Part shown: in pieces, positions 776 to 7,686 of the stretch
Layout of the letters: the number at the start of each line of letters is the position of its first letter
Numbering within the stretch: position 1 is the stretch's first letter
From: a virus
Lineage: Duplodnaviria; Heunggongvirae; Uroviricota; Caudoviricetes
IMG/VR virus record: IMGVR_UViG_2531839474_000007
Coordinates: 1-24,423 of that record
Length of the DNA stretch: 24,423 bases
Reading direction: 5' to 3' (one strand)
The notes under the pieces: model-generated
Told to the model about the DNA's origin: nothing
Databases searched by the model: none
The model's input: only the letters and a program-made list of their open reading frames with translations
Translations under genes and position numbers: made by a program

Positions 776-1380
776 CCTCGTTTAAAAAATATTGTTATTG
801 TTAAAGAATTCTTTTATTTTGCTATCAGGTATTTGTCTTACTTGGCTTTCTGTTCTTGGTTTAACTGATGCTATGAAAATAAGGAAGTCAAATGCGACAA
901 GAGAAATAATCCACAACCAAAGATTAATTAAAGAGCCAGTAACAGAGAATATATTTGTTAATTTGGCGATACTTATTATTAAAATAGTAACAAATGCGAT
1001 TACTGTATGTTCAAAGAAAACCCAAAAGTAATAAACTTTGTTCCAGAAAAGTTCAACGTAATGTTTGTCTTTTAACTCTTTAACTTCTGGGTAATACAGT
1101 TTACTCATTACCTTGTGAGATTCATCAGTAGTTAATTTTCTCGTAACGCCTGCAATTTTTGCTAATGGTTTAATAATTAAATGACTATCCCACATCTTCC
1201 TTATTCCAATAATTTTTGCTACATTATTATGTAGATCTAAAGCTCCACTAATTACTGACCAAAAAACTGAAGATGCAATTGGTAATATGCCAAAGGTTAA
1301 TATCCATTTAATAAATTCCTCGTAGTCTTTAACGGGGGTGAACCGCCCCGGTTTTCCTGGAGAGTGTTTTATCTGTGAAC

Positions 1381-2268
1381 TCAGGCTGCCAGATCATCGT
1401 TTCTGATGGAAGCATAATAAGCTTTTTCTGCTTCTGCCGGAGGGATATGACCCAGCCTTCCCAGCAATCGTCGATTGTTATACCAGTCCACCCACGTGAG
1501 TGTGGCCAGTTCCACTTCTGCACGGTTTTTCCAGCTCTTACGGTGTATTACCTCCGCTTTGTAAAGACCATTGATGCTCTCCGCCATCGCGTTGTCATAC
1601 GAGTCACCTGTACTCCCTGTTGATGCCAGCAGTTTTGCTTCTTTTAGTCGCTCCGTATAGGCCAGTGATACATACTGAGAACCTTTATCACTGTGATGGA
1701 CTGTGCCGGACGGCCGACGGGCCCACAACGCCTGCTCCAGTGCATCCAGCACGAATGTCGTTTCCATAGACGATGAGACTCGCCACCCCACGATACATCC
1801 GGCAAACACATCAATGATGAACGCCACATAGACGAAGCCCTGCCATGTGCTGACGTAAGTAAAATCAGCCACCCACAGCTGGTCAGGACGTTCTGCCACG
1901 AACTGACGGTTTACGCGGTCGCCTGCGGAAACGGCTTTCCGGCTGACGGTAGTACGGACCTTTTTACCCCGGAGAACACCGGCAAGTCCCATAACCGCCA
2001 TGAGGCGCGCCACTGTACATCTGGCCACCCTGATACCTTCGCGTAACAACTGGCGCCAGACTTTACGCACACCGTACACCTGATGATTTTCATCGTATAC
2101 GCGCTGTATCTCTCTCTTCAGCCAGTCATCGCGCTGAGCACGGGCACTGCGTTTATCAGGATGATGTCGCTGTTGCTGACAGTGGTAATACGTTGACGGG
2201 GCAATATGCAGTTCACTGCATACCGGTCCGACCCCGTACTGCTCACGCAGCTTATCCAGCAGCGGCAT
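1381..2268 (-). CDS. IS629 OrfB transposase (DDE/integrase catalytic region)
   Basis: 295-aa ORF identical to the copy-2 OrfB; -1 frame relative to orfA. Confidence 0.9.
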   Translation of the reverse strand: MPLLDKLREQYGVGPVCSELHIAPSTYYHCQQQRHHPDKRSARAQRDDWLKREIQRVYDENHQVYGVRKVWRQLLREGIRVARCTVARLMAVMGLAGVLRGKKVRTTVSRKAVSAGDRVNRQFVAERPDQLWVADFTYVSTWQGFVYVAFIIDVFAGCIVGWRVSSSMETTFVLDALEQALWARRPSGTVHHSDKGSQYVSLAYTERLKEAKLLASTGSTGDSYDNAMAESINGLYKAEVIHRKSWKNRAEVELATLTWVDWYNNRRLLGRLGHIPPAEAEKAYYASIRNDDLAA

Positions 2269-2594
2269 TATTTTTTCCAGAGGCGGTCGAACTCCGCCTT
2301 CGCAAAATAAGCGGAAGCCTGGCGAAGGATATCGTTACTGCGGCGCAGTTCACGATTTTCACGTTCCAGCTCTTTCAGACGCTGACGTTCAGCGGTGGTG
2401 AGTCCACCATCACCACTCCCGGTATCCCGCTCATGCTGACGAACCCACACACGCAGAGTCTCTGGTGTACAGCCAATCTTTGGGGCAATGGAACAAATTG
2501 CCGCCCATTGTGAGTCATATTCGCCCTGACTTTCCAGAACCATACGAACTGCCCGTTGACGGACCTCGGGGGAAAAACGTGTATTTTTAGTCAT
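2268..2594 (-). CDS. IS629 OrfA (HTH DNA-binding transposase subunit)
   Basis: 108-aa [22 protein letters not shown]... with C-terminal leucine-zipper-like region; ends in the A6 tract where IS3-family -1 frameshifting occurs. Confidence 0.9.
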
Positions 2595-3374
2595 CCTGTT
2601 TACCTCTTTCTCAGGGAGTTTAGTCTCCAGGATTCCCGGGGCGGTTCAGGGGGGATATACTTGGCATTAATGCCAACCAATGGCATGTAGCCATAAATGA
2701 CTAATGATAGGTAAAATATAAATGTAGTAATAAAAGTCGCCTTATGGAGCATAGGCAACATTTCATTATAACTCTTTGGTGGTTCTAACATTTTACTCTC
2801 CAAACACTCAAAAAAAAGCTAATCTTCTATAATAACGAAATTCAGCTGGCACAATTAAAGATTAATTGCCACCAATTTCTTGATTTTATAATTTTATCTA
2901 AATGTTTTTGATTAATCTAGTCCTAAAAGAAACCTACTGCATAAATATTTATGCTGATGACCCACTCCCTGTTCGTTAACACATAGCAACGTTAGTAATG
3001 CATCCTAAGTGATCAATATTTTTGCTAGCTTCATCTGCTCGCTCAAAGGGAACTATAATGTTGGCTTGCGTGTGACTTGGCATGTTTAAAGAAGTGCTGG
3101 TGGTGACTGGTTGCTGTTTTCCATTTCCACAGAACAAAATCATAGAAACTATACCCAGTAGTTGTATTGAATCACTGACGAGACAGCCTCATATTTATCA
3201 GGACTGGTGTACGTCCAATACAGGAGGTTGTGGTGCTGGTTCTCAAATGTGCGCTGGCTATTGCTGCTGTAATGGCAATTTATTGTCTTGCTGTTGTTCT
3301 TATGGATCACCTTTCTGATTGATTTCATATTGGCGAGGTAACGGTAGTTAAGTAGAATTGCTGCGGGTGCTTGA

Positions 3375-3412
3375 GGCTATCTGCCTCGGGCATCAACACC
3401 AAAGGCAGATAG
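3375..3412 (+). promoter_or_regulatory. perfect 10-bp inverted repeat (CTATCTGCCT ... AGGCAGATAG) in the hok/mok leader; presumed mRNA structural element
   Basis: Hairpin read directly; no T-run on either strand so not an obvious terminator; lies where hok mRNA 5' regulatory structures and the antisense sok gene are expected. Confidence 0.35.
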
Positions 3413-3476
3413 AGAAAAGCCCCAGTTAACATTACGCGTCCGGCAAGACGCTTAACATTAATCTGAGGCCATATCT

Positions 3477-3689
3477 ATGCTCTACACACGTAGGTTAGCC
3501 TCTTACGTGCCGAAAGGCAAGGAGAAGCAGGCTATGAAGCAGCAAAAGGCGATGTTAATCGCCCTGATCGTCATCTGTTTAACCGTCATAGTGACGGCAC
3601 TGGTAACGAGGAAAGACCTCTGCGAGGTACGAATCCGAACCGGCCAGACGGAGGTCGCTGTCTTCACAGCTTACGAATCTGAGGAGTAA
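3477..3689 (+). CDS. mok: mok-like reading frame (in-frame N-terminal extension overlapping hok)
   Basis: 70-aa ORF with GAGG Shine-Dalgarno 8 nt upstream of ATG 3477; contains the complete Hok frame. Confidence 0.45.
   Translation: MLYTRRLASYVPKGKEKQAMKQQKAMLIALIVICLTVIVTALVTRKDLCEVRIRTGQTEVAVFTAYESEE
3534..3689 (+). CDS. hok: Hok/Gef-family type I toxin (HokD/RelF-like small membrane toxin)
   Basis: 51-aa MKQQKAMLIALIVICLTVIVTALVTRKDLCEVRIRTGQTEVAVFTAYESEE; GGAG Shine-Dalgarno 9 nt upstream; single transmembrane helix plus conserved Cys; near-identical to my recollection of HokD. Confidence 0.85.
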   Translation: MKQQKAMLIALIVICLTVIVTALVTRKDLCEVRIRTGQTEVAVFTAYESEE

Positions 3690-5578: not shown

Positions 5579-5938
5579 ATGCGTATAGAGTTTGTTTTGC
5601 CTTACCCGCCAACGGTGAACACCTACTGGCGGCGTCGTGGCAGCACATATTTTGTATCAAAAGTCGGTGAGCGTTATCGCCGTGATGTGGCGCTTATTGT
5701 TCGCCAGCAGCAACTGAAATTAAACCTGTCCGGAAGGCTGGCAATAAAAATTATTGCAGAGCCACCGGATAAGCGCCGTCGTGACCTGGACAATATCCTG
5801 AAGGCACCACTGGATGCACTGACGCATGCGGGGCTGCTCATAGACGACGAGCAGTTTGATGAAATTAATATTGTGCGCGGTCAGCTTGTTCCTAGTGGGC
5901 GGTTGGGGATAAAAATCACAGAACTGGGGTGCGCATGA
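5579..5938 (+). CDS. rusA: RusA-family Holliday junction resolvase
   Basis: 119 aa; the acidic motif DKRRRDLDN and overall similarity to E. coli RusA; typical lambdoid nin-region position just upstream of Q. Confidence 0.85.
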   Translation: MRIEFVLPYPPTVNTYWRRRGSTYFVSKVGERYRRDVALIVRQQQLKLNLSGRLAIKIIAEPPDKRRRDLDNILKAPLDALTHAGLLIDDEQFDEINIVRGQLVPSGRLGIKITELGCA

Positions 5939-6624
5939 ATAACCAGTATTTACAGTTTGTGCGTGAGCAGCTCATTATCGCCACCGCTGATTTGAGTGGG
6001 GCAACAAAAGGTCAGCTTGAAGCCTGGCAGGAGAATGCCATGTTCGATACAGGGCGTTACAGGCGTAAAAAAATCCGGTACCGCGATGAAGTGACTGGAA
6101 AAATGATAACGCGGGATAATCCACCAATCCCGGGAAAGCAATCGCTGGCGAAGGGGACGTCAATTCCTCTGGTCAGTCCGATTGAGTTTTCGACATCATC
6201 GTGGCGGCGGGCTGTTCTGTCTCTTGAAGAACATCATAAAGCCTGGTTGTTGTGGTGTTACAGCGGGAGTATTTGTTGGGAATATCAGATCGCGATAACA
6301 CAGTGGGCGTGGAATGAATTTAATACTCAATCCGGTACCAGAAAAATTGCAGGGAAAACGCAGGAACGCCTGAAAAAATTAATCTGGCTGGCGGCGCAGG
6401 CAGTAAAAGCAGAACTTTTTGGTGGGGAAGGTTATGAATACAAGGAGCTGGCATTACTGGTGGGAGTGACAACTAAAAACTGGTCCAAAACATTTACTCG
6501 TCACTGGGTTGCAATGAAACACATTTTTCACCGACTGGATAGTGAGGCTTTATTGTTTGTAATGAGAACGCGTTCAAAACAAAAGGCGGCATTTTCAAAG
6601 CAAAGTGTTGCAAAAGTAGATTGA
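5935..6624 (+). CDS. putative late-gene antiterminator Q (assigned by position)
   Basis: ATG 5935 overlaps the rusA stop (ATGA coupling); 229 aa; immediately followed by a tR'-like terminator and the tRNA cluster; no lambda-Q zinc-finger motif recognised. Confidence 0.45.
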   Translation: MNNQYLQFVREQLIIATADLSGATKGQLEAWQENAMFDTGRYRRKKIRYRDEVTGKMITRDNPPIPGKQSLAKGTSIPLVSPIEFSTSSWRRAVLSLEEHHKAWLLWCYSGSICWEYQIAITQWAWNEFNTQSGTRKIAGKTQERLKKLIWLAAQAVKAELFGGEGYEYKELALLVGVTTKNWSKTFTRHWVAMKHIFHRLDSEALLFVMRTRSKQKAAFSKQSVAKVD

Positions 6625-6687
6625 AAGGCATATATTTCATGCAAATCTGATATTTTGCCGATTTTGTACGTGATGGCAAAAGCAAAC

Positions 6688-6716
6688 AAAACCCGCCCAC
6701 AAGCGGGTTTTTTTGT
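6688..6716 (+). terminator. rho-independent terminator (tR'-like) downstream of the Q-like gene
   Basis: AAACCCGC-CCACAA-GCGGGTTT stem-loop followed by a T-run. Confidence 0.75.
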
Positions 6717-6834
6717 GCCACTTATCTCGGATAGACATGGTGAATGCGCTGGTGGAGGAAGCAAGGGTAATTTTTAACCAGGTGATTCTTGAATGCTTGC
6801 AACATTGATTTCGTAACGTTATTATCCTGCGCCC

Positions 6835-6910
6835 GGCCCTTTAGCTCAGTGGTGAGAGCGAGCGACTCATAATCGCCAGGCCGCTGGTTCAAATCCAGCA
6901 AGGGCCACCA
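6835..6910 (+). tRNA. tRNA-Ile2 (anticodon CAU, ileX/ileZ-like; lysidine-type) or tRNA-Met
   Basis: 76-nt cloverleaf folded by hand: acceptor GGCCCTT/AAGGGCC, D arm GCTC..GAGC, anticodon loop CTCATAA, T loop TTCAAAT, 3' CCA encoded; close to E. coli ileX as recalled. Confidence 0.85.
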
Positions 6911-6917
6911 TCACATA

Positions 6918-6994
6918 CCGCCATTAGCTCATCGGGATAGAACGCCAGCCTTCGAAGCTGGTTTCGCGGGGTTCGAGTCTCCGATGGCGGTCCA
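6918..6994 (+). tRNA. tRNA-Arg, anticodon UCG as read
   Basis: 77-nt cloverleaf: acceptor CCGCCAT/ATGGCGG, anticodon stem CCAGC/GCTGG with loop CTTCGAA, T arm CGGGG-TTCGAGT-CTCCG, CCA encoded; one D-stem mismatch. Confidence 0.8.
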
Positions 6995-7007
6995 TTATCG
7001 GTATTCT

Positions 7008-7084
7008 GCGTTTTTAGCTCAGCCGGACAGAGCAATTGCCTTCTAAGCAATCGGTCACTGGTTCGAACCCAGTACAACGCACCA
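7008..7084 (+). tRNA. tRNA-Arg, anticodon UCU (argU-like, reads AGA/AGG)
   Basis: 77-nt cloverleaf: anticodon stem ATTGC/GCAAT with loop CTTCTAA, T arm ACTGG-TTCGAAC-CCAGT, CCA encoded; one acceptor-stem mismatch. Confidence 0.8.
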
Positions 7085-7253
7085 CACTTATTTTCCCTCG
7101 CTCGCTTTTGCGGACCTTTTTTGTATCCGCACCACGCCCGGCGCATACCAACCACAGAGCCTTTCGGGGGGAGCTTATGGAGTGGTCAGTGTGACTTTCT
7201 CTGTGGGCAGATCGCTCCCGGGCGTTGGCTCACCCACCCAAAGGAACGTCACG

Positions 7254-7686
7254 ATGTTTGGTATTTTTGGTAAAAAAAGCCCGCAGAGCGGCAACGGAAA
7301 TTAAAAAGTTTGAAAAACGCGATCTGGCACAGGTGGTGATTAACGCCGCATACCTGGTGGCCTGTGCAGATGGTGAATGTGAGGCTTCCTAGAAAGCGAA
7401 GATCGAACAGGTACTGCGTAATCAGCCTGCGCTGTACGCGTTTACGTCAGAAATTAATGCGATTAGCGCAACCATTATCGGTCAGCTGGATACGAACTTT
7501 AAAACTGGTCGTCGTGCGGCGTTACGTGAGATCGAGGATGTGAAACACGATACGCGTGAAGCGGAAGATGTGCTGGATGTGGCGGTGGCCATTGCGGAGG
7601 CAGACGGCGAAATTGAGCCGGAAGAGCGCAAGGTGCTGGAAGAGATTGCCGGTGTTCTGGGTCTTCGTCTGGAGAATTACCTGTGA
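7254..7686 (+). pseudogene. TerB-like (tellurite-resistance TerB-family) gene inactivated by a frameshift and an in-frame amber codon
   Basis: ATG 7254 with AAGGA 8 nt upstream. The frame stops after 16 codons; the +1 frame entered at the A7 tract (7272..7278) continues through two ADG-x5-E type repeats (ACADGECEAS, AEADGEIEPEERKVLEEIAGVLGL) but holds TAG at 7390..7392 before ending at TGA 7684..7686. Confidence 0.55.

Follow-up and report, generated by a model that had tools for sequence, protein, structure and literature searches.

The 24,423-nucleotide stretch of DNA analysed here (the window) carries at 6918..6994 on the plus strand a 77-nt gene, encoded CCA included, for a tRNA-Arg with the anticodon UCG. 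The gene is argN, the middle member of the ileZ(CAU)-argN(UCG)-argO(UCU) cassette of Stx-type and related lambdoid Escherichia prophages. Its anticodon, TCG in the DNA, occupies 6952..6954 (position 35 of the gene by ARAGORN) and sits in an arm made of CCAGC (6945-6949), the loop CTTCGAA (6950-6956) and GCTGG (6957-6961). The first-pass annotation had claimed a 5-bp stem, CCAGC/GCTGG, closing this loop and had read the anticodon as UCG; both are seen in the sequence, and the check it had proposed, running ARAGORN, returned a tRNA-Arg with anticodon tcg at 6918-6994 on the plus strand. ARAGORN and the Rfam tRNA model RF00005 are independent callers and agree on the gene and on the anticodon. 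The Rfam model, which has a gathering score of 29 bits, aligns to 6918-6991 with 44.4 bits (E = 1.4e-6 over the whole window), and with that E value and the conservation of the gene elsewhere the match is far beyond chance. ARAGORN still makes the call at 115% stringency, and as the threshold is tightened further argN and both of its neighbour tRNAs drop out together between 115% and 120%.

The features of an elongator tRNA captured by RF00005 are present, with U33, A37 and the T loop TTCGAGT in place and the score above threshold, and the invariant tertiary nucleotides (U8, A14, G18, G19, U33, the T-loop TTCGA and C61) are intact. ARAGORN and a pair-by-pair check find a single non-standard pair in the cloverleaf of the window allele, C11xA24 in the D stem, and a single wobble, G52.U62; other positions to mark are A20, C35, G36, U46 and the discriminator U73. 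Identical RefSeq copies are annotated as tRNA-Arg and bear no pseudogene flag. Minimum free energy folding of the single sequence returned a cloverleaf for no argN allele and gave a z-score of only -1.2, a procedure that is uninformative for tRNAs because they depend on tertiary contacts and modifications. An 88-aa minus-strand ORF lying over the tRNAs (6889-7155) was rejected as an artefact, being merely the reverse complement of tRNA sequence.

To either side of argN lie ileZ (6835..6910, plus strand; ARAGORN, Rfam 72.5 bits), a CAU tRNA of the Ile2 type with the pairs C4-G69 and C5-G68, and argO (7008..7084, plus strand; ARAGORN, Rfam 63.3 bits), a tRNA-Arg with anticodon UCU (tct) that reads AGA/AGG, and so the neighbours are those that the first-pass annotation had named, a CAU Ile2 tRNA and a UCU Arg tRNA. 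Identical RefSeq copies of ileZ are annotated as tRNA-Ile, and the gene is named ileZ in Stx2 phages. The pairs 4-69 and 5-68 are determinants for TilS, and the ileZ product is presumably lysidine-modified and reads AUA. The argO of the window has an acceptor-stem mismatch, U6xC67, and its 63.3 bits compare with 68-70 bits for other argO alleles in Rfam. The three tRNAs (CAU, UCG, UCU) thus stand on one strand between 6835 and 7084, right after the gene for the late antiterminator Q (5935..6624, plus strand), an ORF whose near-identical copies are annotated as 'bacteriophage antitermination protein Q'. The cassette has spacers of 7 and 13 nt, and each of the three genes encodes its CCA, which fits a single precursor being cut by the host tRNA-processing enzymes. 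The exact composition CAU-UCG-UCU recurs in 86 of the 127 tRNA clusters of the loci fetched. On one viral contig (L027 7134-7209) the first tRNA of the cassette reads CGT and not CAT through a single A-to-G change at position 35; it is otherwise ileZ-like, and ARAGORN calls it tRNA-Thr.

A consensus scan places a sigma-70-like site, TTGCAA-17 nt-TATTAT, at 6797..6825 on the plus strand, followed by the G+C-rich CCTGCGCCC up to the first tRNA. These hexamers are conserved over 47 upstream haplotypes in which the sequence farther upstream is unrelated (different Q modules or another gene), and they are invariant in a comparison with an Stx2a phage. Since they are kept in unrelated upstream contexts the three tRNAs appear to travel with their own promoter, and the site at 6797-6825 would then be active as one. 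Farther upstream the same scan found a late-promoter-like site, TTGCAA-17 nt-TATATT, at 6608..6636 on the plus strand, overlapping the last codons of Q; it can be assigned to the pR' position because it matches the lambdoid order Q - pR' - tR'. In the tR' position, at 6688..6716 on the plus strand, lies a G+C-rich hairpin followed by a T run (AAAACCCGCCCACAAGCGGGTTTTTTTGT), a hairpin that the consensus scan had placed on the opposite strand. Its function would be tR'-like, with Q-antiterminated late transcription expected to read through it into the tRNAs. As an observation in its own right, the late-promoter-like site with the hairpin and T run (6608-6716, plus strand) would give rise, ahead of the cassette, to a short RNA some 75 nt long, which we take to resemble the short, terminated transcript from pR' reported for Stx phages.

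The window forms part of a lambdoid prophage of E. coli. Many chromosomes, O157:H7 among them, match the 501 bases around the tRNAs at 100% identity, and a related copy of some kind of this 501-base region turns up in no fewer than 3056 of the 5426 complete E. coli genomes; the whole window is 99.8% identical to strain ECO2947 over 94% of its length. The order of genes in the relatives runs hok/sok, DUF968, RusA, Q antiterminator, tRNA-Ile, tRNA-Arg, tRNA-Arg, TerB-like and DUF3927, and continues past DUF3927 with the SASA/NanS-p esterase, lysis genes, terminase, and head and tail genes. Just past the tRNAs of the window, in the slot held by stx in Stx phages, is a TerB-family ORF (7258-7686, plus strand) broken by a stop at 7390, TAG against GAG in the O157 copy; the copy in ECO2947 is likewise annotated with an internal stop. 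Two 100% identical 1310-bp IS3-family elements, IS1203-like in relatives, stand in inverted orientation at 1339-2648 (minus strand) and 10025-11334 (plus strand), each carrying an ALIL frameshift pseudoknot, and bracket the segment with Q, the tRNAs and the esterase. Gene order between the two copies remains collinear with that in relatives, so no inversion has taken place. A match to the sRNA family STnc100 at 100.8 bits, lacking the 3' stem-loop of the model, lies between the DUF3927 and esterase genes (7855-8027, plus strand); the copies in six related loci reach 117-160 bits, and one of them lies just downstream of stx2B in an Stx2a phage locus (L002). The nin region of the prophage also holds a hok/sok type I toxin-antitoxin system (3365-3539, plus strand), with the sok RNA at 114 bits and the hok gene annotated as hokD in relatives.

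As a gene argN is already known. It is named in deposited GenBank records of Stx2 phages, and reportedly it was described with the 933W genome by Plunkett et al. in J Bacteriol in 1999. A full-text literature search by the gene names ileZ, argN and argO gave nothing relevant, and the names rest on GenBank annotation. The literature searched yielded no data on the expression or charging of argN, and Arg-TCG is not listed in a tRNA-sequencing paper on EDL933, supplements included (PMC13185646). The sole addition made here is an allele unseen in isolated phages. Against the tRNA-Arg/argN of 251 phage records the argN of the window is 90.9-93.5% identical over all 77 nt, and the exact allele is found in no record of an isolated phage but in chromosomal prophages only, those of 335 of the 5426 complete E. 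coli genomes, many of them clonal O157:H7. When the exact D-arm word was scanned across all species, matches beyond Escherichia were mostly chance ones in unrelated genomes or in contaminant-like contigs, and at the stringency of that exact word the argN family reads as restricted to Escherichia.

The identity set used by the E. coli arginyl-tRNA synthetase (ArgRS) consists of A20, of C35 together with G36 or U36 and, as a minor element, of a purine discriminator (A73/G73); these elements are said to go back to McClain 1990 and Tamura 1992. In argN the D loop ATCGGGATA has an A at position 20 once G18 and G19 are aligned, the anticodon supplies C35 and G36 behind U34, and A20, C35 and G36 are kept in all argN alleles examined. 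The discriminator is U73 in the window argN and in every allele examined, and is a purine in the tRNA-Arg species of the host. Charging with arginine is expected to be lowered by U73, not abolished.

How good a tRNA the window allele specifies is best judged against its kin. From 120 IMG/VR loci together with phage and genome loci, 12 full-length argN alleles were extracted, all of them at least 90% identical and as a set too shallow for covariation to be informative. Mismatch-free alleles exist and score 55-58 bits with Rfam, as against 44.4 for the window allele, which is also alone in having U46 and not G46. An E. albertii-like allele with the mismatch A3xC70 reaches 44.9 bits, and a 933W-like allele scores 43.0 bits with G3.U70, U7.G66, U27.G43 and A51xC63. 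In the pair-by-pair check most stem substitutions among the alleles give G.U pairs. One copy of the 933W-like allele, in the phage Stx2a_WGPS6 (L002 3157-3233), has G3.U70 together with A51xC63 and U7.G66; G3.U70 is the main identity element of the alanyl-tRNA synthetase. Over 24 cassette haplotypes the mean pairwise difference is 0.004 for ileZ, 0.046 for argN and 0.028 for argO, which makes argN about ten times as variable as ileZ, and it is 0.21 for the argN-argO spacer and 0.25-0.45 for the flanks, the last being inflated by insertions and deletions. Being far below the spacer and the flanks and above ileZ, the difference in argN indicates a gene under constraint, more weakly so than ileZ.

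Dead derivatives of argN are also found, in the form of chimeras in which the 5' half of a window-type argN (with A24) is fused to the 3' half of argO (L006 1532-1608, minus strand; L009 9206-9282; L024 5033-5109; L033 3835-3911, minus strand). The junction falls at GCCTTC, which is common to both anticodon loops, and implies a 90-bp deletion. The acceptor halves of the chimera are unpaired, and neither ARAGORN nor Rfam calls it.

Such dead derivatives elsewhere lend something to the idea that argN in this degraded prophage is a relic with little or no function, a passenger kept only because it is linked to ileZ and argO. The window allele alone has three derived changes, all at structural positions: G24A breaks the pair 11-24, G46U removes G46, and C62U replaces a G-C pair by G.U. 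The allele is among the lowest in Rfam score of those scored, some 11-14 bits under the clean alleles; the argO of the same haplotype has its own mismatch, U6xC67; and the prophage contains two copies of an IS, with a TerB-like pseudogene immediately past the tRNAs. A tRNA pseudogene has lost invariant nucleotides or has several broken stems, and scores below the thresholds of the callers. The window allele has one broken pair and no G46, yet ARAGORN, even at 115%, and Rfam, well over its threshold, still call the gene, and neither the invariant tertiary nucleotides nor A20, C35 and G36, the bases of arginine identity, have been lost. Moreover, one C.A mismatch on its own is frequently tolerated, the 933W-like allele of inducible Stx2 phages does no better at its 43.0 bits, and the identical allele persists in 335 genomes, many though these be clonal O157:H7, with no pseudogene flag in RefSeq. 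The window allele carries derived structural defects and may function below the level of the clean alleles; that it still works is nonetheless quite probable, and we regard the gene being a decayed passenger as unlikely.

What a working argN could offer depends on how the host reads the CGN box. The K-12 set of tRNA-Arg genes comprises four with ACG and one each with CCG, TCT and CCT, with none for TCG (PMC3711424 Table 1), and none of the 5426 complete genomes lacks an ACG tRNA-Arg, the median copy number being 4. Inosine in E. coli is confined to tRNA-Arg(ACG) (PMC13185646). The resulting tRNA-Arg(ICG) reads CGU, CGC and, poorly, CGA, and tRNA-Arg(CCG) reads CGG (PMC3711424, PMC13185646); for a tRNA with I34 the A-ending codon is the hardest, and inosine-mediated reading of CGA is inefficient (PMC3711424). 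The first-pass annotation was therefore right in recalling that E. coli reads CGA through an inosine-containing ACG tRNA and has no UCG species, at least in K-12 (PMC3711424), but its suggestion that argN provides a decoding capacity missing in the host does not hold, CGA being read by tRNA-Arg(ICG) and CGG by tRNA-Arg(CCG). Given that the host already reads both codons, argN could only supplement or speed their reading: it adds an isoacceptor without a counterpart in the core genome, not a missing capacity.

Codon usage was compared between the 3986 codons of 16 late genes in the window and the 14,064 codons of 41 host core genes from the closest genome. Per 1000 codons, CGG stands at 15.3 in the late genes and 6.1 in the host core (odds ratio 2.5, p 1e-7), AGA at 6.3 and 1.4 (odds ratio 4.4, p 1e-6), AGG at 4.3 and 0.4 (odds ratio 10, p 2e-7) and AUA at 6.8 and 2.9 (odds ratio 2.3, p 0.001), whereas CGA at 6.0 and 4.9 is not enriched (odds ratio 1.2, p 0.38). 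Taken as shares of the arginine codons and set against K-12 genome-wide, CGG makes up 21.6% as compared with 9.9% (p = 5e-9) and CGA 8.5% as compared with 6.5% (p = 0.18). The comparison of rare-codon usage that the first-pass annotation had put forward thus comes out in part: AGA, AGG and AUA, and CGG as well, are enriched in the prophage genes, and CGA is not against either reference. The anticodons of the cassette match the enriched codons, and for argN the signal lies in the wobble codon CGG, not in CGA.

Phage lambda served as a control, since it has no tRNA genes and its head proteins are 61-65% identical to those of the window. Over the homologous genes nu1 to U the frequency of CGG per 1000 is 17.0 in lambda and 17.1 in the window, and that of CGA 4.9 and 5.9. 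With CGG equal in a phage without tRNA genes, CGG richness is a general lambdoid trait independent of argN, and the codon bias neither depends on nor predicts the argN tRNA. CGA-rich late genes as the reason for argN are ruled out by the codon counts and the lambda control together. The nearest intact downstream gene, that for the SASA/NanS-p esterase, contains no CGA or CGG codons, and in stx2A, the classic cargo gene, AUA and AGA dominate (AUA being 15 of the 20 Ile codons) and CGA/CGG amount to only 5 codons. A gene for a PerC-family regulator (14472-14786, plus strand) has 12 rare codons among its 14 for arginine (4 CGA, 5 CGG, 3 AGA), and is the gene of the window most dependent on the codons read by argN and argO.

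Overall we consider it likely that argN supplements the reading of CGA and CGG as one member of a rare-codon cassette, which would be transcribed both from its own promoter and, on induction, as part of the late transcript. The cassette would be transcribed from its sigma-70-type promoter and, during lytic growth, would also be covered by Q-antiterminated late transcription from upstream, and the transcript would be cut into three CCA-ending tRNAs. ArgRS would charge argN with arginine by way of A20, C35 and G36, and the charged tRNA would pair with CGA in Watson-Crick fashion and with CGG by wobble. For these two low-usage codons the host has nothing but the poor I:A wobble of tRNA-Arg(ICG) and the single-copy tRNA-Arg(CCG), and argN, along with the readers of AUA and of AGA/AGG, could raise the translation of phage and cargo genes that are horizontally acquired and rich in rare codons. 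The account builds on the gene and its anticodon, on synteny, on the conservation of the tRNAs and of the promoter, on there being no UCG gene in the host and on the codon statistics; the expression of argN, its charging, the modification of its U34 and any benefit from it are what we infer. It is favoured by the enrichment in the prophage genes of CGG, AGA, AGG and AUA, which are codons read by the three tRNAs, and it is weakened in that CGA, the Watson-Crick codon of argN, is not enriched.

Before the main competitor of this account is weighed, a homologue at the same slot needs to be described. In PPompW-type prophages and in phage Evi the middle tRNA is an argN homologue with the anticodon UUU (L003 3198-3273; L004 3210-3286; L142-L221). 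Its arm UCAAC-CCUUUAA-GUUGA has C33 in place of the universal U33 and differs from that of argN by two compensatory changes of stem pairs, and it retains the A51xC63 mismatch and U73. This UUU/C33 form was seen in no fewer than 120 IMG/VR loci, and about 770 of 5426 complete E. coli genomes contain it with an identity of at least 90%. RefSeq annotates some of its alleles as tRNA-Lys and leaves others unannotated, and in Rfam the L003 allele does not reach the threshold. The stem changes of the UUU form remove the CNG motif that P2 Old requires (PMC12445682).

Recent work has argued that escape from host defences is a main reason for phage-borne tRNAs, and has shown such tRNAs to rescue cells from systems that cleave tRNA (PMC10264068; PMC12445682), and the cassette tRNAs might likewise serve mainly as spare parts for host tRNAs destroyed by tRNA-cleaving defences or toxins (colicin D acting on tRNA-Arg, P2 Old, PARIS, PrrC), and not for any match to codons; argN would be the arginine tRNA that survives cleavage or outnumbers the cleaved host species. 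Protection against P2 Old is conferred by the tRNA-Thr(UGU) of the lambdoid phage 21, and P2-lambda interference inactivates Arg tRNAs among others (PMC12445682). Such tRNAs lie downstream of Q in p21 and its relatives, according to the SfI paper (PMC3636060). The idea gains from the weakness of the codon-usage argument for argN and from the UUU homologue at the middle slot of related prophages, where C33 is found and the stem is without the paired CNG motif. In argN itself, however, there is no signature of evasion, by which is meant a change in the anticodon loop or stem, compared with the host target, that removes a recognition or cleavage site in nuclease-evading phage tRNAs (van den Berg 2023; the P2 Old study of 2025). 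Its loop CUUCGAA differs from the CUACGAA of the host tRNA-Arg(ACG) at position 34 only, and its stem retains the paired CAG/CUG motif, with A37 beside it, that mark Old-sensitive tRNAs (PMC12445682). The cassette moreover reads AUA, AGA/AGG and CGA/CGG, which is precisely the classic set of rare codons. No known nuclease spares a UCG tRNA. For argN a role in defence evasion seems improbable, marginally more so than decay.

A further view, that the middle slot is a fast-evolving position at which the anticodon arm is remoulded under tRNA-cleaving defence, with Arg(UCG) and UUU/C33 as alternative states valued for escaping or buffering anticodon-arm nucleases rather than for matching codons, draws on the compensatory stem changes by which the UUU form erases the P2-Old CNG motif, and is the one to which we give the least credence.

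The supplementary-reader account of argN stays the preferred one. As a discovery argN matters little, being named in public records of Stx phages and annotated in hundreds of E. coli genomes. The story of rare-codon supply fits the cassette overall (AUA, AGA/AGG, CGG) and not CGA specifically, and the bias is shared with the tRNA-free lambda. Of more general use are that argN alleles vary in structural quality and that the anticodon has switched at the same slot in related prophages, the latter bearing on whether phage tRNAs are kept for codon supply or for defence evasion.

Among the closest known systems are the Stx2-converting phages of the 933W type, such as Stx2a_WGPS6 (AP012539), which have in common with the window the gene order, the position after Q, the anticodons, the 7- and 13-nt spacers and an identical promoter region. 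Their argN is 91-93% identical to that of the window. What follows the cassette differs, being stx2AB in the Stx2 phages and the TerB-like pseudogene with the DUF3927 gene in the window, and so does the allele of argN, with C11xA24, U46 and G52.U62 in the window and instead G3.U70, U7.G66, U27.G43 and A51xC63 in the 933W-like form.

Within E. coli a further comparison is with the chromosomal tRNA-Arg(ACG->ICG) of argQ/V/Y/Z, which like argN belongs to the CGN box, has A20, C35, G36 and A37, and can read CGA. In contrast to the A34 of argQ/V/Y/Z, which becomes inosine after TadA, argN has U34, and so would read CGA as a Watson-Crick match and CGG through wobble, without the need for TadA. The stems of the two are unrelated in sequence and the discriminator is U73 in argN and A73 in argQ/V/Y/Z. 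Further, argN is borne by prophages and found in a minority of strains, whereas the argQ/V/Y/Z type is in every genome at about four copies.

A tRNA-Arg(UCG) has also been added in Mollicutes of the Pneumoniae group, likewise as a U34 isoacceptor that eases the reading of A- and G-ending CGN codons (PMC3711424). There it is chromosomal and belongs to a reduced tRNA set, in contrast to argN as a mobile supplement. The tRNAs of SfI, Sf6 and phage 21 (Asn GUU or Thr UGU) occupy the same slot after Q as argN, and the debate over codon supply and defence evasion is common to them. Their anticodons are different from that of argN, and tRNA-Thr(UGU), unlike argN, is backed by experiment in protecting against P2 Old.
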